In this document: piece after piece, positions 1-20,500 of the stretch
Numbering within the stretch: position 1 is the stretch's first letter
Layout: each line of letters starts with the position of its first letter
DNA from: Candidatus Micrarchaeota archaeon
GTDB taxonomy: Archaea; Micrarchaeota; Micrarchaeia; Anstonellales; Bilamarchaeaceae
Assembly: GCA_018812715.1 (NCBI GenBank)
Contig: JAHJCT010000017.1
Location: 204,019 to 268,018, forward strand
Direction of reading: 5' to 3'
Length of the DNA: 64,000 nucleotides
The notes under the pieces: model-generated
Databases searched by the model: none
What the model saw: the letters and a program-made list of their open reading frames with translations, nothing else
Told to the model about the DNA's origin: nothing
Program-made: the position numbers and the translations under genes

Positions 1-3000
1 CTGTTGATTCTTCTGGTTCATTTTCTCCTACCCAGCCTTCTAGTCTGCCATACATGTAATTGGCTGCAATCAACCATCCGGCATTTCTTGCCTGATCTTC
101 ATTCCAACCATAAAGATCGACGAACATTGTTGTCATATTCTGATACATTTCATCTGCTTCCTGCTCTACTACTCTGTATTCCCGAAGAAGATCGACTTCA
201 TTATATGCAACTGTTACTCCATACCCATATGTTTCATGTTCACTTGTTGGTACCTCATGCCTCCATCGTCCTCCTATTGTTGCCGGATAACCACCAATAA
301 GTCTTGCTTCCCATGAATGTGATAATGGATCTACGCGCATGCGCCTCCACATAAGTTCTCCGCTTCCATGTGCCCAATGAGTGTCCGTTACTCTTGCGGG
401 ATTTTCAGGATCTAATTCAACTGTCTGGGCTCCGCGATAGAATGCTGCATAAACATCTCTTTGTCTTCCACTTTGTAACAAGTTTGTCACTGCCATGCCA
501 GTTGCTTCTTCTATGTGTACAGGATCCATTGTACTTAGGTTTCTTACAAGCTCTCCAAAGAGAAGTGCTGAAACTGTATCTCCGTCATCTCCAGTTGGTA
601 TGGTAAATCCAACAGCAGCACCATCAAATCCAGCTGCTGCCGAATCTTCTGTGAGCATTTCACTTCCAACAAATCTTAATGAAGCAAGTATATTCTGCGT
701 ATTTACTCCCCCATAAAGGTAATTCATCAACTCTGCTTCTGTATTACGTCCAAATGCAAGCTGGTAAACATCTCCCTCTCCTGTTATGAAAAACAATCTG
801 CTTCTTATTTCTCCTTGTTCTTCCTGCAGTCTGTCTCTTGTTTGGTTTTCAATATCTTCCATTGTTATTCCATAACCTTCCAAAAGTGCATCTAATTCTT
901 CTTGTGCTGCTTCTCTGTCTTCTTCAGTTTCTCCATTTCTTGAAGTATCCAGAAGCGTATTTATATGCGAATAATTAACATCTTCAGGATTTTCGACCCC
1001 CATATCTGTTATATCATCTGATGTTAATCTCCATGTGGGAGGACCAAGAAGTTCTGGCACATAGGTACCTGCAACAAAGAAAAGCATATCTGTTCCGGAT
1101 TCTCTTGCTATCCTTTGGTATGACTCAAGCAGTCCATCTGTCCTCACAGCAGTTGTTACTTCCTCTCCTTCTACCATGCCTGTTGAACTTTCATAAGTAA
1201 ATTCTTCTCGTGCCCTGTGGATTCCTACTCCTTCTCCTCTTCTAAACGTATCAACAGGAACAAGTTGAAGTAAAGGAAGCGGGACTGGTCCAGTTAATGG
1301 ACTTGGAACACCTACTGCTTCTCCAGTATAATCGACCCTATGGCCACCAGTAACACTTTCTTCAGCTTCGGTTCTTTCTCCAGTATATTGCAGCTCCCAT
1401 CTTTCTCCGCCAGTGATGCCCCGTAATTGTCCTTCACCAAGAGCAGCACCACGTTCTGTAACACTTCCTTCTTCTCCTTCTACTGAGTAGTACATTCCTC
1501 CTTCGGCATTGCCACTTAACCAATAATCCTGATAATTCACTGGCATAGCTCCAAAGAGCTGGGTAATTCTTCTTATGATTGTAGATGAACCAAGTGCACC
1601 AATTCTATATCGTGCTGGCACGCCCATTCTGAACATTCTGTCGGTTGGAGGGCGTACTTGATCATACATGTTTGAGAATAATCCCATTGCACCTGAATCA
1701 AGTACATTCAATCCTAACATTGGTCCATTTGGCATTGTCACGCGTGGAAGCAAACTGAGTGGCTGTCCACTTTGTCCATAAAGTGTTGGCAATTGTTCTT
1801 CATCATATTGCCACCAGCCTGGTCTTTGTCTGTATAAAAATGGGCTAATGAAACCCTCATCAGTCATTGGCTCCGGAACCATACGCATTTCATCTTCTAA
1901 TCTATGATGATCAAATGTACTTGTAATTTCTGGAAGTTGTTCTCCAATTCGTCTAAATACTCCAAGGAAGTATTCTCTGTTTATTGCATTACTATACATC
2001 AGATATCTTTGACCTTCAGCATATCTTTGTGTAAACATTTGCCTGAATGCCGTCATTCCTGCAATCAGCGTCCGCTCATCCTGAGCAACTTCTAATAATG
2101 CTGGAAGAACATACAATAAATATGGGCCAACGAGATAAGGATCCCTGTGTGATATCACTAAAAGCGTGTTCATTAATTCTGTGGCTGCAGCTCTTTGGAA
2201 GGCTGATCCACTTCCAGAAATGCCCTCAAGAGCTATGCCCATATATACTGCATCTAATATTGTAAGTTCATTGCGTAATTGTTGAACATTCTCATCTGTA
2301 AATTCTCCTGTTTCAGGACTAAAACCAGTTTCATTTCTTTGTAATAGGTATTCAGTTTCCATACCTTCATAGAACGTTCTTCCGGCCCTTATCAATTGTC
2401 TTCCAGCATCTGTTTGGAAAAATCTGGCCAGTTCTTCTGGTGTAACCTCATCTTGTAAATAGTCTGGTATATCGATGTGATACTGCTGTCCAATGCGTGT
2501 AAGATTTTCTCTGAAAAGTTCAAGATTGAAATATTGATTGAAAAGATAGTTATTCTCTCCAAATTCTTGTCTGTATATGTTTACAGCCTGTTCAAAATTG
2601 GTTCCAAATTCATCACTGGGATTAGAGAATAGCAATGCATTTCTTAATCTTGCATATACGCCGGGCAATGTTCTTGCTACGTGGTCATAATTCTCCATAA
2701 AGTTTGCCCTTGTTGCCCCGGGACCCTCTTCAAATGCACTATAAAGTCTTTCCAGAGTTTCTTCAGGAATATTTTCAAGCTCACTTACTCTAGCGCTTGG
2801 TCTTTCCAAAAATCTCAATGCATTCATATTTTCATGTACAAGTGTTACAAGGTCCTCTCCATAAGCAACATTAAGCATCTGTATTCTTTCTTGGAATCTT
2901 TCATATTCTCTTGTTCCTTCTGCTGGTTCATTCAACCACACCGCATATATTGCTCCGAGTGCATAAAACAACTCTTCTCCTTGATTAAGATATGTTCTTG

Positions 3001-6000
3001 TCAAGACATCAATTGTTCTTGAATATGCAGATGAATATGCTGCCATAAGTTCTCCTCTTACATCTTCTGGCAGTTCCCTTACTTGATCTAGACCAACTTC
3101 TGATTCCAATAATGGTGCAAGATGTTCTCGTTGTGCTTCAACTGCAACTACGAACTCTTCTCCAAACAATTCAACCATTCTTGCCCTGTTTTCTTCTCCT
3201 TGTGGATTTACTAACGCACGGTGGCATCTGATTAAAATACTTGCAAAAAGAACATTTTCTCCTTGTCTTAAATCTTCTCTGGTTGTACCTGGGCTTTCTA
3301 AGAATTGTAAATGTGGCGCATGTGCTTCAACAAGCAATACGAATTCCTCTCCATAATTTCTGACCAAGTCTCTTCTGTTGCTTTCTTCCAAACCAGCATA
3401 TGTTCTTGTAAGTGCATTAAAGAATCCTCTTTCATTCATGCTTCCAACAAACTCGTATAGTTCAGGATCTGCCCCATGCAAAACACTTGCAACAATCTCT
3501 TCTACGACTGCCTGTTTTTCAGGTGTAAGACTTCCAAACCAATCTAACAATTCTCTTAACTCCTGACTGTCAACATCTACACTTACAGTTCCAATCGCTC
3601 CGGTTACCCTTGTTAAATCCCCACCAGTTTGCGCTACATGTATCAAGGAGTATGCCATTTCAACTGATCTGCGAAGTTCTTGCGGATTTAACATTGAGTC
3701 AGACAATGTTCTTTGCTCTTGCTCCAATCTCTCAAGTGATTCTGCATCGGATGTAAGTCTGGATCTTCTTACTATTTCTCTGTTTTGTATCTCCCACCTT
3801 CTTATACGCTCCAATAAAAGTGCCCTTGCTGGTTCAAGAACAGAATATTGCAATTGTCTTCTAATATCCCCAATGTCATTTGCAATAGTGTGGCTGCGTG
3901 ATTCTATTGCCCTACTCCCCTCGCCTTCGATAACTACTGTAGGTGCAGTTACCACTTCTCTTGATACCACTGGCCTTACAAATAATGTTCCAAGTGCATC
4001 TCTTGCATCGACAAGAGCAACTCCTCCTCTGTTAATCGATTGTCTTGCCCTAGCTAATGCTGCCACCAATTGTACTGGGCCATATGAGTAAATTCTTCCT
4101 GCCCTCAATTCTCTTGTAGTTTCATCAGTCCTTTCTTGCAAAGCTGTTTCTATGCTCTGGACATCCCCAGAGAGCCATTCTAATTCAGCGCGATTTGTTT
4201 CAACAAAACCAACAAGTTCTTCCCCATATCGACTAACAAGCCTGCTTCTGTCTGTGCTATTTTCGTAAATATCATGCAGTGCAATTGCAAATGTCCCATA
4301 GGTATATCCAATGTTTTGCTGTATTTGTGTAACAACAGCGTCTTCACTTCTTGTGCGCATACCTTCTTCTATTTGTTCTATTGGAAGTACTAACCAATGA
4401 AGATTTTCTATATTTGTTTCAACAAAATTAACAAACTCTTCCCCATATCTGCTAACTAGTTCTGCCCTTCTTTCCCTCATTGTTTGTACTTCACTATATG
4501 CTTGCGTGAGGACAGTGCCAGCATTATTACCATATCTGCTTATCAGAGCAGTTGCGAGCGGATCTGCTTCTTCTCCTCTGCGGGTTCTTGTTCTTCTTTC
4601 AAGTTCTCCTTGGGCATCAGCAGGACTCATGTCAGCAACCCATGAAAGCTGATCAAAATTTTCTTCAACTGTTTGCATTTCTTGAACAACGTTATGCCCT
4701 ATTGTTCCTTCTTGCACTAATCTTGCATTTCCTCTTATTCTCTCCTCACGCAAGGCACTATAAACTTCTATTAATGCAGCTCCCCTATTTTCAACATCTA
4801 TTTCCAGAAGTTGAAGTGCTAGTGTATCCTCAAACCCAACTCTTCTACTCAGTTCTCTTTCGGCTTGCGTTCCATCTCTCATTAACCAGTCAATTCTGCT
4901 ATTTTGTATTATTACATTGACAAGCTCAGGTCCATAGTCAGTTCTTAATCTGTCAAGATCTGGAGTTTCTCTTGCCAGTTCAGTATAAATATCTCTTATT
5001 GCAATCGGGAGAATGTTTCTGCCAAATCCTCTTATGATCGCTGCTAATGTTTCATCATTATTTAGTTCAGCCCTATATAATGCTTGGAATTCATTCCAGA
5101 ATGTCTCATTCTCCTCTATTGGTCTACCAAGGAATCTTCCATTGAGTATTCCTCTAAATTCATTGCTTGCCTGCTGACTTCCAGTTGCAATAACCTCATT
5201 CATTAATCTGATTGCATGTCCTGCTTGTCCTCTTGCAACAATGTCAAGTAATGGTCCAATTACCTGCTCGTTCATCTGCGTTATTTCTGTATCGCTAACA
5301 TCTCTCCTTAGTACATCGCGCATAAAGCGTTGAACATGCGCATCTACATCCTGTCTTGTACCAGTTATGGCAAGATTATATACTTCTCGAACTAGTGTTG
5401 CAAATTCGCCGGGCTCTATCCCACTCATAATTCTGTTATAATTCTGTGTTATACTTGCTAAACCAGATGCTGTATCATTGTATATTCTTTCACGAAACTG
5501 TTCTGTAAATGCATCTGTAAATTCATCACTTGTATTTGCATTCCATATTCTTACAAATTCATCTCTACTTGTTTGATCGCCAGTAAGTATGAAATTCCTA
5601 AGATGATCTATTGCTATTCTTGCCTGTTCTGCTGGCATGCTTGTTATAACTAATTGTGTAAGATTCTCTCCATATCGTGCAGAAAGTTCTTCTACTGCCG
5701 CTCTTTGCAATTCTTTTCTTACAGCATTATCAATGGTATATCCTTCTTCCATCAATGCTCTTACTCTTCCGACATCAGTATCTGCCCTTACTGCTGTGCT
5801 GGTTTCTACTCTTTCCCTTAATTCATCTACTGCATCATTATTAGGAATACTTCTTGCCAATCCAGCTCTTATATTATACAACGTATCGATGAAGTCAACC
5901 ATAACAACAGGTTCTAATGGCCTTCTATCCTCTCTATAAGCCTCTAAAAGAGCACTCACTTGCGGATCTTCTCTAACCCGTTCCATTTCTTCAGAAAAGT

Positions 6001-6349
6001 GAGCCATAAAAGTAGCATTTTCATTTAATGGAGCTCCTCTGAAATCTTCATTATATATTCTCCAAAACAAGTCTCGTTGTGATTCGTTTCCAGTGATTAC
6101 ATAATTCCTATAAGCGTCAGCAGCTTCAGTGCCTCTTTGCTGAAGATACGTGACGTCCTCTGCTTCAATACGTCCCTGTTCTGCCATAGCTTCATTACCC
6201 CCGAAGTAGTTTATATTGGTAACGGTACCTACGCCAATGCTTGCAGAGAGAAAATACTTCATCCATCTCGAACGCTTTACCCGATCAAGAATGCCTTCAC
6301 GGCGAATCGTCTCTCGCTGTTCGCTATAACAAAGTTTTGCTCCTGCCAT
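1..6349 (-). CDS. Giant acidic repetitive protein, 5' part only (>2116 aa; C-terminus lies beyond the window start). Start ATG is the complement of 6347-6349.
   Basis: My own translation of the minus strand from 6349 to the window edge gives an uninterrupted frame. It is missing from the ORF track because no stop falls inside the window. The N-terminus MAGAKLCYSEQ... has a hydrophobic stretch around residues 28-50. An RYGEEFV..VE module recurs (for example near 4440, 4215, 3345, 3155 and 2855). Composition is R/E/D/A/T-rich, unlike the K-rich housekeeping genes. No family recognised. Confidence 0.8.
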   Translation of the reverse strand, partial: MAGAKLCYSEQRETIRREGILDRVKRSRWMKYFLSASIGVGTVTNINYFGGNEAMAEQGRIEAEDVTYLQQRGTEAADAYRNYVITGNESQRDLFWRIYNEDFRGAPLNENATFMAHFSEEMERVREDPQVSALLEAYREDRRPLEPVVMVDFIDTLYNIRAGLARSIPNNDAVDELRERVETSTAVRADTDVGRVRALMEEGYTIDNAVRKELQRAAVEELSARYGENLTQLVITSMPAEQARIAIDHLRNFILTGDQTSRDEFVRIWNANTSDEFTDAFTEQFRERIYNDTASGLASITQNYNRIMSGIEPGEFATLVREVYNLAITGTRQDVDAHVQRFMRDVLRRDVSDTEITQMNEQVIGPLLDIVARGQAGHAIRLMNEVIATGSQQASNEFRGILNGRFLGRPIEENETFWNEFQALYRAELNNDETLAAIIRGFGRNILPIAIRDIYTELARETPDLDRLRTDYGPELVNVIIQNSRIDWLMRDGTQAERELSRRVGFEDTLALQLLEIDVENRGAALIEVYSALREERIRGNARLVQEGTIGHNVVQEMQTVEENFDQLSWVADMSPADAQGELERRTRTRRGEEADPLATALISRYGNNAGTVLTQAYSEVQTMRERRAELVSRYGEEFVNFVETNIENLHWLVLPIEQIEEGMRTRSEDAVVTQIQQNIGYTYGTFAIALHDIYENSTDRSRLVSRYGEELVGFVETNRAELEWLSGDVQSIETALQERTDETTRELRAGRIYSYGPVQLVAALARARQSINRGGVALVDARDALGTLFVRPVVSREVVTAPTVVIEGEGSRAIESRSHTIANDIGDIRRQLQYSVLEPARALLLERIRRWEIQNREIVRRSRLTSDAESLERLEQEQRTLSDSMLNPQELRRSVEMAYSLIHVAQTGGDLTRVTGAIGTVSVDVDSQELRELLDWFGSLTPEKQAVVEEIVASVLHGADPELYEFVGSMNERGFFNALTRTYAGLEESNRRDLVRNYGEEFVLLVEAHAPHLQFLESPGTTREDLRQGENVLFASILIRCHRALVNPQGEENRARMVELFGEEFVVAVEAQREHLAPLLESEVGLDQVRELPEDVRGELMAAYSSAYSRTIDVLTRTYLNQGEELFYALGAIYAVWLNEPAEGTREYERFQERIQMLNVAYGEDLVTLVHENMNALRFLERPSARVSELENIPEETLERLYSAFEEGPGATRANFMENYDHVARTLPGVYARLRNALLFSNPSDEFGTNFEQAVNIYRQEFGENNYLFNQYFNLELFRENLTRIGQQYHIDIPDYLQDEVTPEELARFFQTDAGRQLIRAGRTFYEGMETEYLLQRNETGFSPETGEFTDENVQQLRNELTILDAVYMGIALEGISGSGSAFQRAAATELMNTLLVISHRDPYLVGPYLLYVLPALLEVAQDERTLIAGMTAFRQMFTQRYAEGQRYLMYSNAINREYFLGVFRRIGEQLPEITSTFDHHRLEDEMRMVPEPMTDEGFISPFLYRQRPGWWQYDEEQLPTLYGQSGQPLSLLPRVTMPNGPMLGLNVLDSGAMGLFSNMYDQVRPPTDRMFRMGVPARYRIGALGSSTIIRRITQLFGAMPVNYQDYWLSGNAEGGMYYSVEGEEGSVTERGAALGEGQLRGITGGERWELQYTGERTEAEESVTGGHRVDYTGEAVGVPSPLTGPVPLPLLQLVPVDTFRRGEGVGIHRAREEFTYESSTGMVEGEEVTTAVRTDGLLESYQRIARESGTDMLFFVAGTYVPELLGPPTWRLTSDDITDMGVENPEDVNYSHINTLLDTSRNGETEEDREAAQEELDALLEGYGITMEDIENQTRDRLQEEQGEIRSRLFFITGEGDVYQLAFGRNTEAELMNYLYGGVNTQNILASLRFVGSEMLTEDSAAAGFDGAAVGFTIPTGDDGDTVSALLFGELVRNLSTMDPVHIEEATGMAVTNLLQSGRQRDVYAAFYRGAQTVELDPENPARVTDTHWAHGSGELMWRRMRVDPLSHSWEARLIGGYPATIGGRWRHEVPTSEHETYGYGVTVAYNEVDLLREYRVVEQEADEMYQNMTTMFVDLYGWNEDQARNAGWLIAANYMYGRLEGWVGENEPEEST

Positions 6350-6421
6350 TGACTAACTACCTTTGTATTTATTGTGTTAAGAAAGCTTAAAAAGAGGTGT
6401 CACAATAAGGATTTTCAGGGA

Positions 6422-6688
6422 TTATCCTACCCCCAAAAATTTCTCATATTCTTTGTGGTCGCCAATAAAATAAAATTTCCGAGTTTTTATTCTTTCTTCT
6501 GAAACAAAAAGCACACGATATTGCCCGATCTCATCAACAAAGAATTCAAGACCATATTTTTCATGTCTAAAGCCATGCGTAGGGAATATTTTATATTTGT
6601 CTCTACGTTTCATAAATCTCTTTTGGATATCTGGCGGAAGCTTGTCAAAATAATTTTTCCAGGCTTCATCATATTCAAGGATGTACAT
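6422..6688 (-). CDS. RelE/ParE-family toxin (type II toxin-antitoxin)
   Basis: 88 aa. Pattern YILEY...KLPPDIQKRF...YRVLFVSEE...FYFIGDHKEY fits RelE/StbE. It lies immediately downstream of a small partner ORF, the classic antitoxin-then-toxin order. Confidence 0.7.
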   Translation of the reverse strand: MYILEYDEAWKNYFDKLPPDIQKRFMKRRDKYKIFPTHGFRHEKYGLEFFVDEIGQYRVLFVSEERIKTRKFYFIGDHKEYEKFLGVG

Positions 6689-6697
6689 TTATCTCAT

Positions 6698-6922
6698 CTA
6701 TAAAAGATGTTGATATTTACCTGTAAATTCTTCATCGCCAATTGTTTTCCTTTTTCCTTTTTTTGCTTCTTCATGAAGTTCTTTAAGTACTTTTATTGCC
6801 TTTTTATCTTCAAGTGGCCTTACTCCCAACCTTTCATGAACTTCCTCTTCTAAGTAATTGATAATATCTCTGCATTTAAGTAGTTCTTCATACTCTTGCT
6901 TAGATATTTTGATATACTCCAT
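6698..6922 (-). CDS. Putative antitoxin partner of the RelE-like toxin
   Basis: 74 aa, charged and helical. It sits directly upstream of the toxin on the same strand with a 9-nt spacer. The local region is AT-rich, unlike the flanking giant genes. Confidence 0.5.
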   Translation of the reverse strand: MEYIKISKQEYEELLKCRDIINYLEEEVHERLGVRPLEDKKAIKVLKELHEEAKKGKRKTIGDEEFTGKYQHLL

Positions 6923-6967: not shown

Positions 6968-8533
6968 TCATTCTATTTGCAATACTCTTCTGCGCCTTGT
7001 CCCTTCATCTTGTGGTTGCGCTTCTGGCACTGTGACGTTTGGTATGCTCCTTGCCCAATCCCCAACAGTGGAAGTATGGTGATTCATTCTCCACGTATAA
7101 ACAGAAATAGCAGAAAGTGTTCTCATATCTATTATTCCATTAACATGAAGATCTGTTCGTGGAGTTCCTAATATGCTGTTATATAATAAGTTAAGATCTC
7201 CATTGAGGCTGTCAAACCATTCTTCATCTGTTCTAGTTGCTGAGAAATTTATGAATGCCTGCACTGCCCTTGCTACTAATCTTCTATCCGTGTCTGATGT
7301 GGTACTTCTTAAGCGTGTCGCTTCTCTTCCAACAGTTGCATATTCATCATGACTTTGTACAAATGCTAAAAACACCTCATCTTCATGCAGGTAGTCATTG
7401 AATATTCTCATAAAAGCATCATATACATCAGTTCTCTCTAATTCAGTTAATGCACTTTCTAAGGAATCGTATCCTTCCGGAAGAGTGCGCATGAGTGTTA
7501 TTATTGCCTCTGGCCTTCCCTGTTGCACTCCTTGATATAATTCAGTACTAAGATTGGCCCAATGGCTTTCAGCAAATTGTTGCAGTGGGGTTTGTCGTAC
7601 TTCGACTGCTAATACTTCTGTAGCTTGCCATACATCAATACTATCCTGGCTTACACCAGTTCCTGTTTCCAAATACCATCTTCTCAAATATAATGCAGCG
7701 GCTGTAAGTGTATCTGCATCCATTGCTACAGTACGGTATGTTCTGAGACTTTGCTCATTTCCAATTCTTGTATGAATCTCTGGTAATTGATCTATCTCTT
7801 GATGATATCTTGCATAATTTTCACGTGCTGCTTCAAATTCAAGAAGATAATACCGGGTAAAAGCAAGTGCTGTGTTTACCAAATTAGCATCTGCATTTAT
7901 CGCAAGTGTTGGGGGTTCTCCTTGTTCTGTCATATATGCCTGAAGCGCAGCATAATTCCCTCCTTCTCTTCCAGCAACAGATGAAAGGAATAATCTGAAT
8001 CTTGGTATTTGATAAAATTCATTGAAAATTGTAACTGCTGCTCCTCTTCTGTTTTCATCTGTAGAAAGAAATTGCTGAATGCGATCTCTGTTAGTGTGCA
8101 AGGTATTTACAGCATTCAATGCATCTGTGCTTCCTCTTGCTCTTAATTGCATTTGAATCCAATCAGTTGAAATTGTTGGTATTGGAGGTTGTTCTTCTAC
8201 TGTTTCTTCTCTTCTTTCTCGTCTGGGCCTTCTCTCACGCCTTGGTGCAGGTTCTTCTACAGCTGGTTCTTCTACTACAGGCTGAGGGTGCAGTTCTCCA
8301 TAAATACGTGTAGCTATTGCCGCTACATTTAATCCATCAATAGCATCAAAATCCTGATCTGCACATCTTCCGCTTGCCCAGTTTTTAGCGCGTCTCAGTT
8401 CTCCTTGCAGATCTTCAACGCTCATTTGATCGTTTACAGTTACTCCTGTGTTATACCTTCTTGCCTCTCCTTCTCCACCTGTACAAACTATTACTATCGT
8501 ATTATTTCGAAGCGTTACTCTGGCATCAACCAT
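6968..8533 (-). CDS. Hypothetical 521-aa protein linked to the giant-protein cluster
   Basis: Its ATG shares a base (position 8533) with the stop of the 2854-aa gene. The N-terminus VTLRNNTIVIVCTGGEGEARRY loosely resembles the YGLTVSGEGE C-terminal motif of the giants. R/E/A/T-rich composition with a PRRERRPRRERREE linker. Confidence 0.6.
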   Translation of the reverse strand: MVDARVTLRNNTIVIVCTGGEGEARRYNTGVTVNDQMSVEDLQGELRRAKNWASGRCADQDFDAIDGLNVAAIATRIYGELHPQPVVEEPAVEEPAPRRERRPRRERREETVEEQPPIPTISTDWIQMQLRARGSTDALNAVNTLHTNRDRIQQFLSTDENRRGAAVTIFNEFYQIPRFRLFLSSVAGREGGNYAALQAYMTEQGEPPTLAINADANLVNTALAFTRYYLLEFEAARENYARYHQEIDQLPEIHTRIGNEQSLRTYRTVAMDADTLTAAALYLRRWYLETGTGVSQDSIDVWQATEVLAVEVRQTPLQQFAESHWANLSTELYQGVQQGRPEAIITLMRTLPEGYDSLESALTELERTDVYDAFMRIFNDYLHEDEVFLAFVQSHDEYATVGREATRLRSTTSDTDRRLVARAVQAFINFSATRTDEEWFDSLNGDLNLLYNSILGTPRTDLHVNGIIDMRTLSAISVYTWRMNHHTSTVGDWARSIPNVTVPEAQPQDEGTRRRRVLQIE

Positions 8534-11500
8534 TAACGTTCCCCTCTTCTGCTAACATACTGCATGATATGATTACGCAGGCCATTTCTTGCAGTCCTTC
8601 TATCAACTTCTACACTTAAACCTTCTCCTTCACCACTTACAGTAAGTCCATATCCTTCACGTAATTGCATGTCTCTATCTATGGTGCTAGTAAGTAATCT
8701 GTACATCTCTGCTTTGATATCTGCTCTTACAACATCTCTTGCTCTTTCTCTTGTTTCAGCATCTTCTGAATTTATTTCAGGACCATATGCATTTACCATT
8801 GCCTGTGCATCCTCTGTTAATGTTCCATCATCGTTTCTAGCTTCAATCATTCTGTCTATTGTTCCATCCAACAATGGTGTTAATGTACTTTCTTCATTTG
8901 CATAAAATCTCTGTGCTTCAGGTGATAAAGTTGCTGGAGGTGCATGAACTTCTTCAACATCAATCTGATCCTCTCTTCTGGGAGTCATTACTTCAAATCC
9001 AGGCCGTCTAACATATTGTGCTTCAAATTCTTCTCCAACCGGCTCCACTGTTTCTTCTCTTGTTACAGTTCCTCTGCTTCTTTCTCTTTCTTCCCTGGCT
9101 TGTTCTTCAGCAGGTGTTGCTCCATCCCACCAGCCGTTTGATCTGTACACTGTAGCCCTGCGGTCTAGATATTCGTATATTTCAGTGTATCTTCCAGGTC
9201 CTGGGACAGTGCTATGTTGCGAAGCATCTTCTATTATTTCTAAAACATGCCCGCGGATATTGTCTCTGTGATCTAGCAGCCATCTCACAAAACCTAATCT
9301 TTCTTCATCTGATCTTTCTGCAATAAATGTAACTAAGTGTGCATTCTCAGGATCAAACAATCTTGGTTCCATATATCCAAGAACTGCTGAACCTACAAAG
9401 CCGCGTTGTCTTGCTGCTTCAACTGCTTCTCCTGGAGTTTCACTTTCTAATATTAATGCTGCAAGCTCTTGCGGATTTCCATAGATTGCGTCTCCTCCAA
9501 TAACTCTATTCTCTTCTCCGTATCTAATATCCTCAATATTAAATGCATTGAATGCAAGCAAGGCTTCATTATTTTCTCTATATTGATTGAGCAGTTGTTC
9601 ATATGTATCTCTGAATCCAGGATCAAGTGATGCCCTGACATCAAGCAATCCAAGGAATGAATTTTGTCTTATTCCTGTAACTGTTCCATCTTCTTCTATT
9701 ACTTCAATGTAAAGATTCTGTGATCTCAAATGTGCTTCAAGTACCTGATAGATATCTCTTTCACTAGTAACCTGTTGCCTTAATTCTGTTATCCTTCCTT
9801 CGCTTGTAAGATCATTCATTATATTATCTAAATATACACTGGGTATGTGTCCTCCTTGTACTGCTTCCCATAAGTAGGCAAATACATCTGTGTTTGAAGT
9901 AAGGAAATCTACTCTTTGTCCGCCTTCTCTTGTATATCTTCCGCTTTCCGCCTCCCCTTCACTGATCAAACCAGTATCTACACAGAATGCATCTGCAACT
10001 GCATCCCTGAAATCTATCACAAGTCCTCTTTCTCTCCATTGTGGTATACGCAGATCAAATAAATCCGTAATATCTACTTCTTCTTTTCTTTCTTGCGAAA
10101 GAATTCCTTGCACATCATCAACAGTCAATCCCCATGGTTCAAGGATTGCTGCAAGCTCTGCCTCTCTTCTATCTTCTGCATCTCCTCTCCTCATATCACT
10201 CAATAGATCATTTATGTCATCTAATCTTCCGCCCATCTCTCTTCCGTCAGCAACTATCTCTCCAAGTCTTCTTGGTTCTATTAGTATGTCTGTTCTTTGA
10301 AGCAATTGATTAAGATCTTCTACATTTCCAGGTCTCCTATCTCTACCTCTTGGAAGAGCATTGGGCATGTGGAAGAAGAATCGCCTCCCTTCTTCAGTTG
10401 CAAGCCATTCCAAATCTTCATCACTGGCTCCGGCACAAAGATTTCCAAAGTCTCTTTCGCATAGCCTTCTTCCTTCTTCAACTGATCCGGCACTATTAAG
10501 TGAATTGTACCATGGCAATAGAACATTATCCCACGCGTAATTTCCAATCACATACCAGGCTATAGCCTGCGGTATTAAGTAAGGAGAATTCCTTAATCCT
10601 GCTCTTATCCTCCCTCCCGGAACTGCATTTCTTATGGAATTAACAAATCTTCTTGCTCCCCAATTAGTGAGTGGTTCCCAATTGTTGAGAAATCTAAGAA
10701 TTCTCCATCCAATATTTATTGCATCGTCCCTTAATGGTCTTGTATCTCTTGCAAATACATCTGCAGCAGTGCTTGCTTGGTCTAAAACTTGATTTATTCT
10801 TGGTCTTAATGCATTTATTGCTGAAAATTCTTGTGCAAATGCCGGGTCTTGACTAATATTTCTTACAAAACCTTCTAACGGAGTTCTCATTTCTCTTGGC
10901 ACAAACTGTGGTTCTGCTCCTTCTACAGCTCTGCCTTGTTCCAATACATTCAATATCTCGTCTACAGTTCTATTATTTTGCACTGCATCTCTGTAAATCT
11001 CTGCAGCTTCCCTTCCATATCTTTCCCTTACTGCTCTTTCAACTTCAGGACTTCTCAGAATCTCAGTTAACACATCATTAACATTTCCACCTTGGGAACT
11101 ACGCTCAAGAAGAGTACGCCTAATTACATTTGTTACTGGTTCATCAGCTATTGGAATTTCTCTTATTCTTCCTTCCACACTGTTTTGAACTCCAGCCAAT
11201 TCGCGAACAAGCATCTGAGGCGGAATTATGTCACTACCTTCTAATCTAGGCAATAATGATGCTCTTTCCAGCGGCGTGTATTCAATTCCAAGCAATTCCT
11301 GTGTTCTTAAAAGCGGTGCCAATTCACCCCGTTGTGCTTCAATTGCCCTTATCATCACTTCTACATCATTTGCAGAAAATCCTTCACGTGCTTGCACTGC
11401 CATATAATCTTCAGGACTTATTCCAGCATTTCTTGCCCCGCTTTCAATTGTTCTTCCTGTTCTATTTAATATATCTCTAAGTACTGGATCTGTTTCAGCT

Positions 11501-14500
11501 AATGTTTCAAGTTGTGCCCTTACATTTGGCCTTGAGTATATGCGTCTTAATAAATTCCAATAGCCACTAGTCTCCCCTCTTGCCGTTTGTGCTGTGTCGT
11601 ATAAAGATTTCATGATATCTGCTATTCTCTGAGGACTAGAATTCAACAGGTTTTCAAGTTCTACTGCCTCTGTTCTTGCTGTTTGTGCTTCTTGCTCTGC
11701 AACCCTTATCTCTTCTGGTCTTGCCCCTCCTTCTCTAAGTTCTTCTACTCTGACTTCAAGTTCAGTAGCTCTTGTGCGTGCCCTACTTATTTCTAATTGT
11801 GCCAATTCAGGATCTAATACCATATCCAAAGTATTTCTAACTCCTTCGCCTGTTGTACTAAGTACTTCTTCAGCTTCAGGAAGTTCGGCCCTTGCATTTC
11901 TCTCTACTCTATCGCTTCTCCAATTTTGCCAGCGCTCTCTTCCAAATCTATACATTCGTTCAAAGCGTCCCCATCTTACTTCTGGTATTGGCCGAACTGG
12001 TCCACCACCTCCACCCTGGCCCCCACCAACGGTTGTATCAACAGGACCTATTCCTCCTTGTTGCACTCCTGGTGGCCTTGCTCCTCCCTCTTCAGCCATT
12101 GCTCTTACTTCAGGCATCTGCCTTATCATCATTGGACCTTCGCCTTCAACAAGATGAGGCCTGCGTGCCATTTCACTTGCAACAACATCTTCTATGTAAT
12201 AGTTGTAATCATTCACTGCCATTGCAACAGCTTCAGGTTCAAACATTGCTTCTATTTGTGATCTTGCATTTTCCAAAGCACGTTGTGAAAATGGAGTTGC
12301 TTCTCCAGTTTCAAAGTAATGCCTTACACTTGGATTCCTGATAAGTCCATCTATTATTTCTGCAACTTCAGGATTTTCTGCCCTTATATTCTCTAATGTT
12401 TGTTGTGCTGCAGCTCTATGAACTACATTTTCTCTTGCTGTTGTTCCTTCAGGTGTTAGCAATCCCTCAAGCAGCCAATCCAATCTTCCTGGCTGCAATG
12501 TTCCTGTGCTTTCAACTTCTGTTACTGGTCTTCCGCCTCTTGGCCCTGGCGTTGGAGGTTCTGGGCCTCTGAATATCATATCAATTACACTTGTCATATT
12601 TCCTCGTGCAAGTGGTGTCATTTCTCCTGTTACTAGGGCCTCTGGAACATGCATAAAGCTTGTATTTCCAATGCTGCCCGTCTCCATAAACTGCATTATT
12701 CTTCCTTGTACTTCCTCAGGCAGTGTTCTCAACCGTGCCTGTGCACCATCCCTTACAGTCGGGTCTTCACTTCTCAACTCTCTCATGAATTCAAACATTT
12801 CTTCTGGGGTTCGAAGTCTTTGTGCTTCTCTAACTGAAGGAATTTCATTAGGTTCTATTTCAATTGGAACCTCTCGCGGTTCCGGTGCCCTTATCTCTTC
12901 AGCTACAAGCTCAGTTTCTGTTCTTGCTTCTGTTGTTCCTCTTACTGGTCTGGCTCTCATAGCTTGCCATCCACGTGACCCTGCCATATGTGCCCATGGG
13001 AAAGCGGCCATTGCAGTTAGGAAAATTCCCTCCCGCATATTCCCTTCTGAAAAGGCATCAACTGCATGATATCCCATATATCCTGAGAAACCAACTCCAA
13101 TTCCAATGTTTGTATAATTAAGGGCTCTTACCACTTGTGTCATTCTAGTAGCATATGCAGTTCCTTGTGCAAACTGTGCTTCTGTACGTAAAACGCCTGC
13201 AAGTCCTCCGATACCCATAGTTGCTATTATCCCACCAAACATCAACCACGATGTCCAACTTGCTTCTCCTTGTACCCGGTATTCTGTAACTATCTGATCA
13301 AATGCCATAGTTGCAAAGAGCGACCCACCAAAAAGTTGTCCTCCAGGTACGAGACACGCTACAACCCCAACAGCAGTTAGTCCAACTGTAGTCCAAAATT
13401 GGTGGTCTGCTACTCGTTCCTGCATTCGATCTATGATTGCATTAGCATCATCAAATCTTCCCATGCCAACAAGGGCATATACATTGCCTTGATCGACAGC
13501 ATACTCTGCAAACATCTGGCTTCCTGAATCTGCAGGAATTGCGAATATTGATGCTTCAACAATTCTTGCACCATTCAAATCCAACTGCATTCTCTCTTGT
13601 GATCCAGACCCTCCTCTACCAAAGAGAATATAATGCATCGAATCTGTTTGCATTTCTCTGTAAGCATCCCAATAAGATCTATCTGGTTCGCTTCTCATAA
13701 ATTCTGCAAAATCTTCTGGGAAAAATATTGCCTCTCCTAATCGTTCTGCACCTTCAAGGAAGTTTTCAATACCTGTAGCAGTTAAATTCATCGCACTTCT
13801 TCCTTCATATGATGCCATAGCAGTTATCCTATGATCTATAGCAGCTTCATATGCTTCTTCAGCTTCCTGGAACCTTCCCTCCAAAATAAGATTTTGAGCT
13901 CTTTGCAAATCAGTATTACAATCTCTTAAATTATCTTCTGCTAAACTAAATCTATCTCCACCCCCAATTCTTATCATTCTTAGATATTCATCGTTTACTT
14001 CTATCTGCTGTCCTATCTGTGAATAAGCCATGGCTGCCCTGCTTTCTCCTTGCACTAATTCGAGCAGATAACTCATCACAGTTCCGCCTCTTAGCCCCTC
14101 TCCATATATTGGCAGATCATCTGTAGTATATTCTATCCCATCCATCTGTGTAAGCAGAGCATCTACTTCGGTAGAAAGATATATCACTTGCCTTAATCTT
14201 CCCATCTCAAGGTCTGATACTGCTCCAAATGTCTCTGGATGCTGTTCAATATAATCTGCCATTAAAGAAAGGCCATTGCTTGTTGTAGTAAATGCGCCTA
14301 CATCATGGCCATAATCCCATGCTGTTTGCCAAGCTCTTTCTCCTGTTGTTCCTCCTCCGCACATGTTTATGACATAAGCTCGGAATGCTTCAGTAAGTGC
14401 ATCATTTCCTTGCCTAAGTATTACTTCAGCATCTACTACTGTACTTCGTCTATGCACTCTTGTAGCAATTAATGACAATCGGTTCCAATATGTTTCACTT

Positions 14501-17106: not shown

Positions 17107-17430
17107 TCAAGTATATTCCTTACACATAAGTACAAAATCCTGCAGCCTCTCAAGTCTCGCCTTTTCATTATCTTTTCCTTTCACTGCTTTTTTCTGCCAT
17201 TCAACCAGCTCATCATGGAATTTTCTTATTTTTTCTATCTGTGGCTCCATACTCCTGCTTTTTACCTTTGAAGCCTCCCATTTTGCAAGGAATTTTTCTA
17301 TTACAGTAATAGTATGATTTACCCTGTTTATTGTATTTTTTTCAACAGAAGCAGCATCAGTCTTAACAGGTATTTTCTTCTTGGAGATTTTTTTCTTTTT
17401 TGAAGATTTTTTCTTAGCCATCAGAAGCAC
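17107..17430 (-). CDS. Small lysine-rich protein (107 aa) immediately upstream of the 2854-aa gene
   Basis: Its ORF ends 9 nt before the giant's start codon. K-rich and AT-rich like the housekeeping genes, not like the giants. The N-terminus MAKKKSSKKKKISKKK suggests nucleic-acid or acidic-partner binding. No family recognised. Confidence 0.45.
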   Translation of the reverse strand: MLLMAKKKSSKKKKISKKKIPVKTDAASVEKNTINRVNHTITVIEKFLAKWEASKVKSRSMEPQIEKIRKFHDELVEWQKKAVKGKDNEKARLERLQDFVLMCKEYT

Positions 17431-17511: not shown

Positions 17512-20500
17512 TTATTCATTTTCTCTGCCTACAAAGCTCAGAGTGTGTCTCTCTATGCCTCTTCTGGCTCTTCCCATATCTGTTATTTGAACAGCGAACT
17601 CTTCGCCTTCACCACTTACAGTGAGTCCATAGTCAGTACGGTGCTGTACGTCCCTTCGTATATCACTTGTAAGAAGTCTATACCACTCTGCTCTTATTGC
17701 CATTTCAGTTTGTTCTCTGTTCCCTTCAAATGCACTTCTTAGCAATTGACCGTCTTCTCCTTCATCAGTGAAGAGCCTTTCCAGGGTTCCGTCCAACATG
17801 CTGTTAAAGTCATTTTCAATAGTATAGAACTGTTGAGCCTCAGCGTTCAATTCTGTACCACTTCTCTCAGTTCCAGTTCCTCTAAATCTTTCTACTTCAT
17901 TGATGTATCCTGTATCAACAGCCCACTGTACACGAACACCTTGTGGATCTGAGAATGGATTATAGTCAGATACATTTCCACCATCTGCTTTGTGCCTTTG
18001 CAGTTCTTCAACAAATTCTTCAAGACGGTATCTGTTGAGTCTGTATCGTGCACCTCTGGTATCGACAAAGCTTGTCAGGAGCTCTCTTATATCCTGGTTT
18101 GTTGGCGCAAGAAGAGTGTATGCCATGCTATCTGAAATATCAAATTCAGAAAGTTCTCTTCTTAACTCCCTTCTTGCATATTGTTCAGAGGTATCTTCAA
18201 CCCATCCATTTGTTCTTGCAGTTGCCATTGCTTCATTGAATGTTTCTTCTAACATTACATCAGTTACAGGAACACGTCTTGTTTGCAATGTTTGTCCTTC
18301 CCCAGCTCTTGCTTGTGTTTTTTCTTCCCAAAGAGTAACAAATGCTTCTCTATTTTCTGGTTTGAGGTACTCGGTATGCTCTCCCCTTTCAGCCACTAAT
18401 GGAAGCATAAGTCTTCCTACTCTATCTCTTCCTTGTGCAAAGACAAAATCCACTAATCCAAGATCTGCTATATTATAATTATCCATTACTCTTTCTTGTT
18501 GCTCAGATACGAGGAATCCTCTTTCTACCCATTGCCTTGTATGTTCATTCATATAGTCATAGTCAACTGTTGCCCTCGTTCCCTCTTGTGCCATTAAATA
18601 ATCAACAAATTCATTTGTCATATTCCTGTTGAGTTTAAGGCCATCGGTTATCACAGTATATTCTACATCGATTATACAACAGAACTGATTTCCTGATTCC
18701 CATTCATCTTCAATTGCTAGTGGTTCCCAGTTTTCTACATCATCCATACTTTCAATACCAAGTTCTCTGCATGAATTAGGTATTACTAATCCCGGTGTTG
18801 CTGGAGGCCTTTCAACTGCTTCTCCTGTTCCCTCGGCTACTTCATTAGTTCCTTCAGCTACCTCGCCAGTTCCTTCTGCATTTTCTTCTCTAGGCGGAGG
18901 TTGTGCTCTAGAGGTAGAACCTGCACTTGTTTCCTGAGAACAATTAGCTATGTCATCATCATCCAGTTCGTTTACATCTCTAACATGTTTCAATGTTCTT
19001 CTCTCTTGGAAGAATGTAAGAACACCTTCATTATCATGTTCAACTTGATTATCCCTTAGCCAGTCTAATCTTTCCTCACCTGTAACTCCATATGCAGTTG
19101 TGTAATAACTATCCTCTCTTTCTGCAAGTCGTTCTGGAATGTCGTAACTATCATTTATCATTCTCTTATTTGAGAGCTCACCTTGCATCGGAGACCACCA
19201 TTCCCAAGGTGCTCGGTCGAAGTGGTTTCCAAAATGATTAAAGCTCCAACGCCATGGCATCGCATTCCATGAGAATGGATTGTACCAATGACCTGTAGTT
19301 GATGTACCAATGCGATAGGTCCAAGGTTTGTACCATGCTCCGTTTGGTGTTGTTGTCATCCATTCATTTGGTGATGTGAACCATGCAACACCAAAAGATC
19401 CTATCAAGTATGCTTTGAGTGCTCCTTTCCAAAGTCCCCTCAACCATCTCGGGTAATGTTGGTATGTGTGAGCCTTTCCTGTAATTGGATTTCTACCAAC
19501 AACTTGCTTATTCCAATTTCGTTTCTTAAGATCATCAACTGTTTCTCCAAAGCCCCAACTTGAAAGTCTTCTAAGACGCCCACCTCTAAAATTACCTTGT
19601 GACTTTCCTATCCATGCTTCGCTTGTAAATAATCTCCAGAACCATTTATCTTTGAACTTTTGCCATTTTCCTACAGTTACTTTTGGAGACGGATCCCAGC
19701 TTTCTTTTGTAGCTTCCCAGATCGTTCTTGCTATAACAAATTGACCTTGAGGTATTTCACCTAAGTTTTCAGCAGTTCTTTTATGAAGCATTTCAACTGA
19801 TTTTTCAGCTGCTTTTCCTAATGGCTTGGAATACTTATTTTCTATTTTTACCAGCATCTCTTCTAATGAAGCACGAGGATACTTTCTAGTTTCTATTGCC
19901 TTTACAACTGTCAGCATTCTTTTTCTTACTTCATCAGGCAATTCTGCTCCTTCTACTTTTGTTCTTAATGCAGTTGCTTTTGTATCAAATGCTTCAAGCT
20001 TATATCTGAAAAGTTCTTCGCTTTCACCTTTACCTTTTCGTTCTTGTATCACTGCATCATATTCTGCTTTAGTAATACTTCTTGCTCTAAGCAGTTCATC
20101 CAATTGTTCTGCAGTTTTTGTTCTCAATCCTTGTTCTGTTGAAGGAATACCAAACAATTGCTGGCAGTCGTCCATACGATCAAGAACTTTCTTTGTATCT
20201 TTCATCAATTCACTGATAACTGGATTGCCTAGCCACTCTCCTGCTCTATTTGGAAGTTCATGAATTAATTCTGTACTCACTTCTCTGCAGTCAAGCATAT
20301 GCTTTTTGAAGTTTTCAGAGTATGTCCGTACTACATTTTCAAATCTGCCATTTTCAGTTCCTTGTATTCCACCTAATTCTGCTGAAAGTGTATCAAATAT
20401 TTCTTTTGCTTGAGTATACTCGTCCTCTATTCTCGCCCCCCTAGCAGACAAACTCAGTCCACGGGTATTAAATTCACTAATTCGCTGTCTTGCAATTACT

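Follow-up and report, generated by a model that had tools for sequence, protein, structure and literature searches.

The left end of the 64,000-nucleotide stretch of Micrarchaeota DNA analyzed here (the window) is occupied by a truncated giant reading frame in which a RYGEEFV-like motif recurs. This locus raised the questions of whether the motif marks a true repeated domain, what such a domain would build, and whether it is shared with a second giant protein, B (8533-17097, 2,854 aa), encoded nearby. The open frame (6352..2, minus strand) has an ATG start at 6349 and encodes residues 1-2,116 of the 2,824 residues of giant protein A (2..6349); the C-terminal 708 residues lie beyond the left edge of the window. 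The encoded sequence was 100% identical to P0001 (hypothetical protein, KKB44_03040, Candidatus Micrarchaeota archaeon, 2,824 aa), whose mass is 321 kDa. Judging from its homologues, the giant A family appears only in Micrarchaeota, which are tiny symbiotic archaea.

The initial annotation had placed five copies of the module near positions 4440, 4215, 3345, 3155, and 2855 and a further one near 5670. All six sites were found, in a single minus-strand frame, with the Y/F of the YG pair at A residues 635, 708, 999, 1062, 1163, and 226, respectively (window ~4447, 4228, 3355, 3166, 2863, and 5674), and the similarity of the units extended far beyond GEEF, across ~48-58 residues (a..L..iY..l....r..L...YG.e.V..V..N...L.WL..P). 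In leave-one-out analyses, in which each HMM was built from the other six units and 200 shuffled, composition-matched copies of A served as decoys, the five main copies scored 9.6-43.6 bits, and the best shuffle 6.5 bits. The copy near 5670 was marginal (5.6 versus a decoy maximum of 4.3), and a candidate at aa 473 did not rise above the decoys from 200 shuffles (2.2). After the profile had been iterated on 11 homologues, all copies, including the aa 473 candidate and a degenerate unit at aa 524-588, scored 27-66 bits, giving ten modules in full-length A, eight within the window and two past its left edge. A self profile-profile comparison of A, made without prior knowledge of the motif, also returned off-diagonal alignments with probabilities of up to 99.9% (E 2e-36). 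Together with conservation in 19 species, these analyses confirmed the recurrent module and the repetitive architecture of A, and showed the RYGEEFV motif to be the core of an undescribed, ancient helical domain of ~58-70 residues (consensus AALRDIYRELRRERPDRARLVRRYGEELVALVEANMDSLSWLLRP..E..RR) that occurs only in the giant A family.

All eight copies in the window lie on the minus strand. Copy 1 (aa 208-260, 5570..5728, RYGENLTQLV), the one noted near 5670, scored 32.5 bits with the iterated HMM; it is divergent, and its second half runs into the following "ITG" motif. Copy 2 (aa 449-505, 4835..5005, AIRDIYTELARETPDLDRLRTDYGPELVNV; 56.3 bits) was missing from the earlier list, and its orthologues scored 54-81 bits in 11 homologues. 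Copy 3 (aa 524-588, 4586..4780; 27.0 bits) is degenerate, with an insertion and without YG; it retains ALIEVYSAL...NFDQLSWV...ELERR and occupies the same position in all homologues. The leave-one-out and iterated scores were 43.6 and 65.5 bits for copy 4 (near 4440; aa 612-669, 4343..4516, SRYGEEFVNFVETNIENLHWL), 32.9 and 51.8 bits for copy 5 (near 4215; aa 689-742, 4124..4285, SRYGEELVGFVETNRAELEWL), whose 48-nt DNA core had 85% identity to that of copy 4, and 31.5 and 55.3 bits for copy 6 (near 3345; aa 978-1032, 3254..3418, RNYGEEFVLLVEAHAPHLQFL). Copy 7 (near 3155; aa 1037-1096, 3062..3241, ELFGEEFVVAVEAQREHLAPLL) scored 9.6 in the leave-one-out analysis against a decoy maximum of 4.2, and copy 8 (near 2855; aa 1147-1197, 2759..2911, VAYGEDLVTLVHENMNALRFL) 14.2 against 5.0, with iterated scores of 46.4 and 40.5 bits, respectively.

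The N-terminal region of A has, in addition, four "ITG" motifs (aa 71-112, 241-285, 314-349, and 373-422; 5084..6139, minus strand; e.g., AIDHLRNFILTGDQTSRDEFVRIWN) that align with the first half of the module. In self hhalign aa 71-1166 were matched to aa 241-1266 with a probability of 99.9%, and aa 314-349 fell opposite module copy 2. Segment 330-371 of P0007, orthologous to the "ITG" region, scored 13.7 bits with the module HMM. By these alignments the four motifs look like divergent half-units of the module.

The start-to-start spacing of the copies was 59-289 residues, with no regular period, and no tandem DNA repeat was found, the recognizable DNA cores being only 27-48 nt long. Identity between copies within A was 8-44% (mean 25.5%). 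Across 10 orthologues, column conservation was ~62% for each copy and equally high in the sequence flanking it. The low mutual identity, the conservation among orthologues and the shortness of the DNA cores together indicate that the copies are old, and the conservation of each copy suggests that they are not interchangeable spacers. Orthologues from 19 species carried 6-12 copies, with copies at orthologous positions. Extra copies were present at non-homologous sites in P0003 (1251), P0005 (1721), and P0011 (1816), nearest to the copy-10/2 type; copy 7 was tandemly duplicated in P0011, where units 1023 and 1100 both best matched the copy-7 profile; and copy 5 was absent from P0002 and P0003. 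We infer that copies have been gained or lost as cassettes, through duplication, insertion into loops elsewhere in the protein, and loss from single lineages.

AlphaFold2, given an alignment of 99 units, returned an all-helical model (pLDDT 84), in which the module is predicted to form a small four- to five-helix bundle. In the profile consensus these are a1a AALRDIYRELRR, a1b PDRARLVRRYG, a2 EELVALVEAN, and a3 MDSLSWLL, followed by RP and then a fourth helix, ..E..RR. In this model copy 4, taken as a 68-aa unit, had helices at residues 4-29, 31-39, 41-48, and 51-64, and copies 9 and 10, modeled within aa 2280-2824 (pLDDT 84.8), each had four to five short helices (block pLDDT 83-96). With few exceptions, the positions conserved in all copies (A, L, Y, L, L, Y-G, V, V, N, L, W-L, and P) hold turn residues or core residues of hydrophobic or aromatic type, which suggests that what is conserved is the fold and not a common active or binding site. 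A had earlier been described as repetitive and possibly fibrous or scaffold-like. The repetitive part of that description stood; a fibrous form is unproven, as the units are predicted to be compact bundles, irregularly spaced and with non-repeat segments between them, and a coiled coil or a regular solenoid was rejected. The uneven spacing of the units, and linkers that are conserved as strongly as the modules, could likewise be explained by a large globular helical assembly instead of a stalk.

The reading we favor, with about even confidence, is that the module acts as a structural cassette, folding by itself, from which the helical ectodomain of a secreted giant A is built. The module would fold independently and be duplicated, inserted, and lost as a cassette; modules and divergent "ITG" half-units would account for most of the ~1,250-residue helical region at the N-terminus of A, and two further copies would have been inserted directly before its C-terminal beta-rich domain. 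The modules would form a long, segmented, acidic, arginine-rich ectodomain, anchored by the C-terminal beta-domain, which may extend its reach and serve as a scaffold for the partner giants whose genes adjoin that of A (C, a 107-aa protein, B, and D). After duplication each copy may have gained its own surface, and hence its own contacts. A secreted or envelope context for A is suggested by its signal-like N-terminus, a predicted C-terminal beta-meander, the hydrophobic membrane segments carried by B, and conservation of the gene cluster in a distant relative. The N-terminal ~56 residues (6182..6349, minus strand) run from a basic stretch through a weakly hydrophobic one to a conserved G.NINN.GGN.AMA|QP; as read from the sequence and its conservation in homologues they are a putative signal peptide or signal anchor, whose hydropathy (Kyte-Doolittle 1.0-1.8 over 15 residues) is modest and low for a signal peptide.

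Staphylococcal Ebh is a giant surface protein with FIVAR/GA three-helix modules. Such bacterial giants resemble A, on the reading above, in having independently folding short helical bundles repeated in a very large secreted protein, with lineage-variable copy number. In A, however, the copies are few (6-12), old (~25% identical), irregular, and interleaved with unique segments rather than arranged in long, near-identical tandem arrays, and the A module had no match to FIVAR/GA modules by sequence or fold.

The strongest alternative, which we consider unlikely but still about half as probable as the structural cassette, is that the module is a binding domain whose ten copies give multivalent attachment, for example to molecules of the host-cell surface, to the cell's own S-layer, or to B, C, and D, making A an adhesin or assembly hub and not a passive scaffold. 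That copies are far better conserved among orthologues than they are alike within A is as expected with one partner each, and the charged helix ..E..RR is conserved after most copies. The conserved cluster with four other family-specific proteins is also consistent with this alternative, as is the proposed involvement of giant surface proteins of other DPANN archaea in host contact (PMC10266531). However, the residues common to all copies are core or turn residues and not a common surface patch, and no similarity to known binding domains was found.

The initial annotation had also reported the module in B and taken it as an argument for common ancestry of A and B. We regard their paralogy, from a repetitive ancestor, as improbable. 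The segment IEAQRGELAPLL is indeed present in B (aa 1919-1930, window ~11308-11343), within the stretch that had been matched to copy 7 (aa 1913-1933, 11299..11361, minus strand, EVMIRAIEAQRGELAPLLRTQ). A 1064-1084 and B 1913-1933 have 11 identities over 21 residues, but the likeness of IEAQRGELAPLL to VEAQREHLAPLL of A was no better than chance (blastp against a database of four proteins, E 0.41-0.73). The B segment is not conserved in the B homologues P0015 and P0016, nor is its ELAPLL part in P0014-P0016. A second B segment (2006-2043, DVLTEILRSPEVERAVRERYGREAAEIYR), with a YG that B-family members conserve, is similar to copies 2 and 10 over their first half and scored above 100/100 residue shuffles by Smith-Waterman. 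Three of the ten copies aligned to B above nearly all such shuffles, a null that is liberal for helical proteins of similar composition, and the matches fell on two separate segments, with 75 residues between them and not in the order that a single module would require. The module HMM gave 0.3 bits at the first site (E 0.14, four-protein search) and -2.7 bits at the second, and was below zero elsewhere in B. With hhalign, the 99-unit profile matched the B-family profile with a probability of only 0.4% (E 0.14), with its top site at B 1999-2034 and not at the segment originally reported. B and its homologues were also absent from a profile search of 1.84 billion representative proteins (E<=0.001). 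A whole-family hhalign comparison found a single short shared stretch outside the module (A 1792-1846 / B 2291-2342, probability 32%) and no collinear similarity over ~2,800 residues. From these comparisons A and B appear to be conserved neighbors, not demonstrable paralogues.

Still less probable, in our judgment, is that the module belongs to a known class of helical repeats, such as TPR, Sel1, HEAT, spectrin, or FIVAR, from which it has diverged beyond recognition by sequence models. The module is all-helical and near some of these repeats in size, and single units gave scattered sub-threshold matches to TPR-type models. Against this, no such family matched more than 6 of the 99 units and none reached threshold: neither the module nor the whole giant proteins had a match at or above the curated thresholds of Pfam-A, NCBIfam, and PHROGs. 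The best Pfam family for single units was the NinG C-terminus (6/99, at E>=0.017), and phrog_4916 (function unknown) matched 10 of the 99 units (best E 1.5e-4). The module had no match in the PDB by sequence or fold; Foldseek returned nothing for the model from the PDB (best E 5) or BFVD, and no similarity to solved solenoid or tandem helical repeat units. An assignment to these (TPR, Sel1, HEAT, spectrin) was also rejected on the spacing of 59-289 residues, the unique segments between units and their independent insertion, even of single copies, and loss. The exhaustive search of the 1.84 billion representatives gave 30 matches at E<=0.001; the 18 read as sequence comprised 17 members or fragments of the giant A family and one artefact, and the other 12 were judged solely by length and number of matched stretches, by which the module appears only in the giant A family. 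Finally, a chance or compositional origin of the recurrence is next to impossible despite the strong bias of A (E 11%, R 9%, K 0.2%), given 43.6 bits versus <=6.5 in composition-matched shuffles, the self hhalign result, and the orthologous positions across species.

A porin-like predicted beta-domain was observed at the C-terminal end of A. The AlphaFold2 model of aa 2280-2824 had ~12 long antiparallel strands in a meander of alternating polarity. Nearly all of its top 50 Foldseek PDB matches were outer-membrane beta-barrels (best E 2.4e-3, TM-score <=0.36), with no match at E<=0.001, and full-length P0001, P0003, and P0005 had no Pfam match, the autotransporter and OMP families included. Most complete orthologues end in W, typically G-W-x-x-M-L-[YH]-G-x-x-x-W-COOH, which is similar, but not identical, to the beta-signal consensus; the exceptions were P0023 (F), P0019 (H), L018 (R), and P0018 (W then GP). 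The likeness to type V autotransporters and porins of diderm bacteria is one of layout only: a signal-like N-terminus, a very long "passenger", ~12 C-terminal antiparallel strands, and a terminal aromatic residue, with a passenger that is helical in A and a beta-helix in autotransporters. Neither BAM machinery nor an outer membrane is known to be established in archaea, and in this respect the window held only archaeal housekeeping genes.

We speculate, while considering it rather improbable, that A is an archaeal counterpart of a bacterial autotransporter or porin-tethered giant, exported by a signal peptide, with a long, helical, module-built extracellular arm and a beta-meander, ending GWxxMLxGxxxW, that closes to a membrane barrel in a symbiont-host conduit with membrane-embedded B. 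If so, the barrel would sit either in an outer layer of the Micrarchaeon's envelope or in the membrane of a wall-less host. The almost complete exchange of lysine for arginine in A, B, and D might then shield these proteins, exposed or delivered to the host, from modification or degradation directed at lysine.

Among archaeal surface proteins, a cultivated Micrarchaeon has an S-layer, whose SLP_Mh-type protein carries domain PF05123 and is ~100 kDa (10.1101/2021.04.28.441871); A, at 321 kDa and with no PF05123 match, was rejected as a protein of this type. The giant "SPEARE" surface proteins of Nanohaloarchaeota (DPANN), for which a role in host contact was proposed, have a signal peptide and recognizable domains (Ig-like, WD40 propeller, laminin-G, and VirB4-like ATPase) (PMC10266531). 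Both groups are giant, acidic, and presumably surface-exposed and take up much of a reduced DPANN genome, but the Micrarchaeota giants are unrelated in sequence and have no Pfam/NCBIfam match at all, and none of these Ig-like, propeller, laminin-G, or VirB4-like Pfam domains was found in A, B, C, or D.

A duplicated small domain within a giant protein is ordinary; the domain itself is undescribed and confined to one phylum, and its profile is a sharp means of finding and delimiting the giant A family. The five-gene cluster (A, C, the 107-aa protein, B, and D) is conserved, being kept in a distant relative, with no recognizable domain in any of its genes. It spans roughly 23 kb, and in distantly related Micrarchaeota it adjoins genes for ribosomal proteins, eIF6, prefoldin, and FtsY. 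For a genome of ~1 Mb, its share is estimated at about 2-3%. That a symbiont with a reduced genome retains so much uncharacterized coding sequence suggests that the cluster plays a central part, plausibly in the envelope of the cell or in contact with the host.

The scarcity of lysine, the porin-like C-terminus of A, and the conserved cluster may outweigh the repeat in importance, and lysine avoidance and the porin-like C-terminus are concrete, testable leads on how Micrarchaeota attach to and feed from hosts. Giants A, B, and D are nearly without lysine, with arginine kept. The described lysine deserts (PMC10665810, PMC10169902) belong to proteins of the cytosol that act in ubiquitin or pupylation systems. 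Like these, the Micrarchaeota giants have long, conserved, nearly lysine-free stretches in which arginine is kept; in contrast, they are whole archaeal proteins of 521-2,854 aa, apparently of the envelope.

The initial annotation had proposed a recurrent module within protein A, a giant protein encoded by a single open frame on the minus strand that extends from 6352 to the left window edge. The in-window product was 100% identical to residues 1-2,116 of P0001 (KKB44_03040), a 2,824-aa hypothetical protein of Candidatus Micrarchaeota archaeon. A loose pattern, [YF]G..[LFIV][VTA]..[VIL], identified seven sites in A and none in its neighbours B, C and D. Six of the seven were sites already reported, with the Y/F of the motif at P0001 residues 635, 708, 999, 1062, 1163 and 226 (window positions ~4447, 4228, 3355, 3166, 2863 and 5674, respectively). 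The proposed module was therefore borne out, in that the named sites exist and the units align over ~48 residues, past the GEEF tetrapeptide.

A first HMM of all seven units matched its own units by construction and was superseded by a leave-one-out analysis, in which an HMM from six units scored the omitted seventh and 200 shuffled versions of A served as decoys. The five main copies of the initial annotation scored 43.6, 32.9, 31.5, 9.6 and 14.2 bits, the copy near 5670 scored 5.6 bits, and the top score among the shuffled decoys was never above 6.5 bits. A candidate at residue 473 failed this analysis (2.2 bits) and was accepted only once homologues were added. Self-comparison of A by blastp at E<=1 produced no off-diagonal matches; pairwise BLAST is not suited to units so short and so divergent, and we therefore used HMMs and hhalign.

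Eleven homologues of A were retrieved (40-57% identity), all of them giant and those named being labelled Micrarchaeota; a third search, with the family alignment as query, yielded the same set of 12 proteins. The profile iterated on these homologues converged on 119 units with a 58-residue consensus, AALRDIYRELRRERPDRARLVRRYGEELVALVEANMDSLSWLLRPPASIERELTRRAA, and identified ten copies in P0001 at 27-66 bits each. The first eight are within the window (aa 208-260, 449-505, 524-588, 612-669, 689-742, 978-1032, 1037-1096 and 1147-1197 of P0001), and copies 9 and 10 (aa 2298-2355 and 2384-2441) are outside it. Comparison of the A-family profile with itself, which is blind to the motif, confirmed the internal repeats with off-diagonal alignments of probability up to 99.9% and E 2e-36, in which aa 70-1270 aligned both with itself and with aa 2290-2450. 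The same comparison aligned four N-terminal "ITG" motifs of A with the first half of the module; these motifs are therefore probably divergent half-units. At the DNA level, the recognizable cores were just 27-48 nt, exactly at the positions first reported, and no tandem DNA repeat was found in the A gene. The repeat is dispersed and ancient, without a fixed period.

The ten copies in A share 8-44% pairwise identity (mean 25.5%). Each occupies the same position in the orthologues, with ~62% column conservation, equal to that of the surrounding sequence. The duplications are therefore older than the family, and every copy has been retained individually. Copy number has nevertheless changed by the gain and loss of whole units: an orthologue carries 6-12 copies across 19 genomes at species level, each labelled Micrarchaeota or close to it, copy 5 is absent from two homologues (P0002 and P0003), copy 7 is duplicated in tandem in P0011, and P0003, P0005 and P0011 have extra units, resembling the copy-10/2 type, at non-homologous sites. 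The insertion of single units at unrelated positions argues that the module folds on its own. An AlphaFold2 model of copy 4, based on a 99-unit alignment, was all-helical (pLDDT 84), and in a model of aa 2280-2824 (21 sequences, pLDDT 84.8) copies 9 and 10 each formed four to five short helices with high confidence. The residues conserved in all copies are those of a hydrophobic and aromatic core and of turns. Together, these data showed that the module is genuine, a helical domain of ancient origin that is specific to this family.

Searches of Pfam, NCBIfam, PHROGs and PDB sequences with whole proteins, the family profile and 99 units returned nothing usable. In the Pfam scan of the 99 units, at most six units matched any one family and no score came near threshold. 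The PHROGs search produced one 71-position family of function unknown, phrog_4916, that was matched by ten units. Similarities of the module to the NinG C-terminus and to phrog_4916 were weak and mostly involved orthologues of one copy, and we treated them as unproven. A profile search of PDB sequences with the module gave no meaningful match, and Foldseek with the unit model gave zero matches in PDB and BFVD. When 1.84 billion representative proteins were searched exhaustively with the HMM, 30 matched at E<=0.001. Eighteen of these were read, 17 being A-family giants or fragments and one a repeat artefact, and the other 12 were judged solely by protein length and by how many stretches matched. 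As a domain family the module is new, but its kind is familiar.

The initial annotation had also placed the module in B and argued from this for common ancestry. This was not supported, as the module HMM scored only 0.3 bits at the site proposed in B. Against a database of four proteins, blastp matched A 1064-1084 to B 1913-1933 with an E of 0.4-0.7. When the module and B-family profiles were compared by hhalign, the probability was 0.4%, at a different site. B was absent from the exhaustive module-profile search of the 1.84 billion representatives, and ELAPLL was not kept in B homologues. Three copies (2, 7 and 10) gave Smith-Waterman scores against B that were above almost all residue shuffles, at B 2006-2043 and B 1913-1933. 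We consider this a weak hint at most, given the liberal null, the wrong order of the two B segments and the disagreement of the profile methods. The initial interpretation is partly supported: the repetitive architecture proposed for A stands, and common ancestry with B is not borne out. One region of B, aa 1999-2043 (10969-11103, minus strand; ..DVLTEILRSPEVERAVRERYGREAAEIYRDAVQNN), has a loose likeness to the first half of the module, with a YG conserved in the B family, and was non-significant by HMM and hhalign. If there is a relic module in B, this would be the best candidate.

Family-against-family hhalign of A and B found a lone common stretch of ~52 residues (probability 32%), which is not the module. 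This stretch, acidic and of pattern IN.LL...(E/D-rich)...L...G(I/L)T..DV, is shared by A aa 1792-1846 (812-976, minus strand) and B aa 2291-2342 (10072-10227, minus strand) with a blastp E of 1e-3. Some A orthologues lack it, and P0009, P0011 and P0016 carry it in duplicate, so it may represent another small mobile segment.

A and B are conserved neighbours. The window is archaeal and encodes fibrillarin, eIF6, prefoldin, FtsY, CDC48, Elp3, HerA and NFACT. Upstream of A, also on the minus strand, are D (521 aa, 6968-8533), B (2,854 aa, 8533-17097), a 107-aa ORF (17107-17430) and C (1,463 aa, 17512-21903). The gene order C, 107-aa ORF, B, D, A (2-21903, minus strand) is kept in L001, a stretch from a distant Micrarchaeota relative (5387-28703), where the C-like, 107-aa, B-like, D-like and A-like genes adjoin the same block of fibrillarin ... 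eIF6, prefoldin and FtsY. The cluster proteins are 28-50% identical between the two. We rejected a mobile-element origin for the cluster because a relative of ~30% identity retains this synteny with the core genes. None of the five cluster proteins has a recognizable domain, and A, B, C and D had zero matches to Pfam, PHROGs or NCBIfam models.

Two small lysine-rich ORFs, of 88 aa (6422-6688, minus strand) and 74 aa (6698-6922, minus strand), are inserted between D and A, and no equivalent genes were called at this position in L001. By eye the pair resembled a toxin-antitoxin system, an assignment we did not adopt, Pfam having given zero matches. B (aa 2724-2853; 8539-8928, minus strand) and C (aa 1352-1463; 17515-17850, minus strand) have a common C-terminal domain of ~130 residues (39-40% identity, E 8e-18). 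B also has a hydrophobic, glycine-rich segment in mid-protein (aa ~1234-1375; 12973-13398, minus strand) with at least 2-4 membrane-span-like stretches; all three homologues of B conserve this segment, which has more than 1,200 lysine-free residues on either side.

We infer that A is secreted, on the indirect grounds of its conserved N-terminus (basic, then hydrophobic, then G.NINN.GGN.AMA|QP), a C-terminal beta-meander predicted by AlphaFold2, and the membrane segments in B. The module would then serve as a structural unit from which the helical N-terminal half of this giant is built, a scaffold reading to which we give an even chance. That the module instead has a multivalent binding role seems rather unlikely, at about half that weight, and other alternatives have little probability. 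A Micrarchaeota S-layer protein and a SPEARE-type protein were also considered for A and rejected. The window encodes two cysteine-rich right-handed beta-helix proteins (30797-33862, plus strand, 1,021 aa; 56459-60028, minus strand, 1,189 aa), which have classical signal peptides, C-terminal transmembrane anchors ending in RKRGKK or RRGKKR, and low contents of both K and R (1-1.8%). A signal peptide with a C-terminal anchor is the ordinary surface-protein anchoring of this organism, with which A contrasts.

The lysine avoidance and the porin-like C-terminus of A are probably more interesting than the repeat itself. A (2-6349 in the window, minus strand) has 5 K versus 265 R in its full 2,824 aa, and three of the five K fall within the putative signal region; the counts are 6 K versus 295 R for B and 1 K versus 53 R for D. 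In C, lysine makes up ~7% of the sequence as far as residue ~900, beyond which there are only 6 K, its lysine-poor part being the C-terminal third (17512-~19200, minus strand). Housekeeping proteins of the same window have 8-16% K. In A and B, AGA was used at 66.6 per 1,000 codons versus 28.8 in housekeeping genes, and AAA at 1.4 versus 79.4. Lysine avoidance is common to most orthologues, with a subset (P0003, P0019-21 and P0023) having 4-6% K. A conserved cluster of giant, lysine-free proteins without recognizable domains, one with a porin-like tail, is an unusual setting and worth following.

That tail, unexpected for an archaeon, is only a lead. Residues ~2450-2824 of P0001, past the left window edge, were predicted to form ~12 long antiparallel beta-strands (pLDDT 84.8). 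Nearly all of the top 50 Foldseek matches of this model in PDB were bacterial outer-membrane beta-barrels, including FecA, a Legionella porin (probability 1.0, TM 0.36), OprC, TamA and BamA, with none at E<=0.001 (best E 2.4e-3, TM 0.36 or less). Apart from four orthologues without a terminal W (P0023, P0019, L018 and P0018), most complete orthologues of A end in this residue, typically as G-W-x-x-M-L-x-G-x-x-x-W-COOH.
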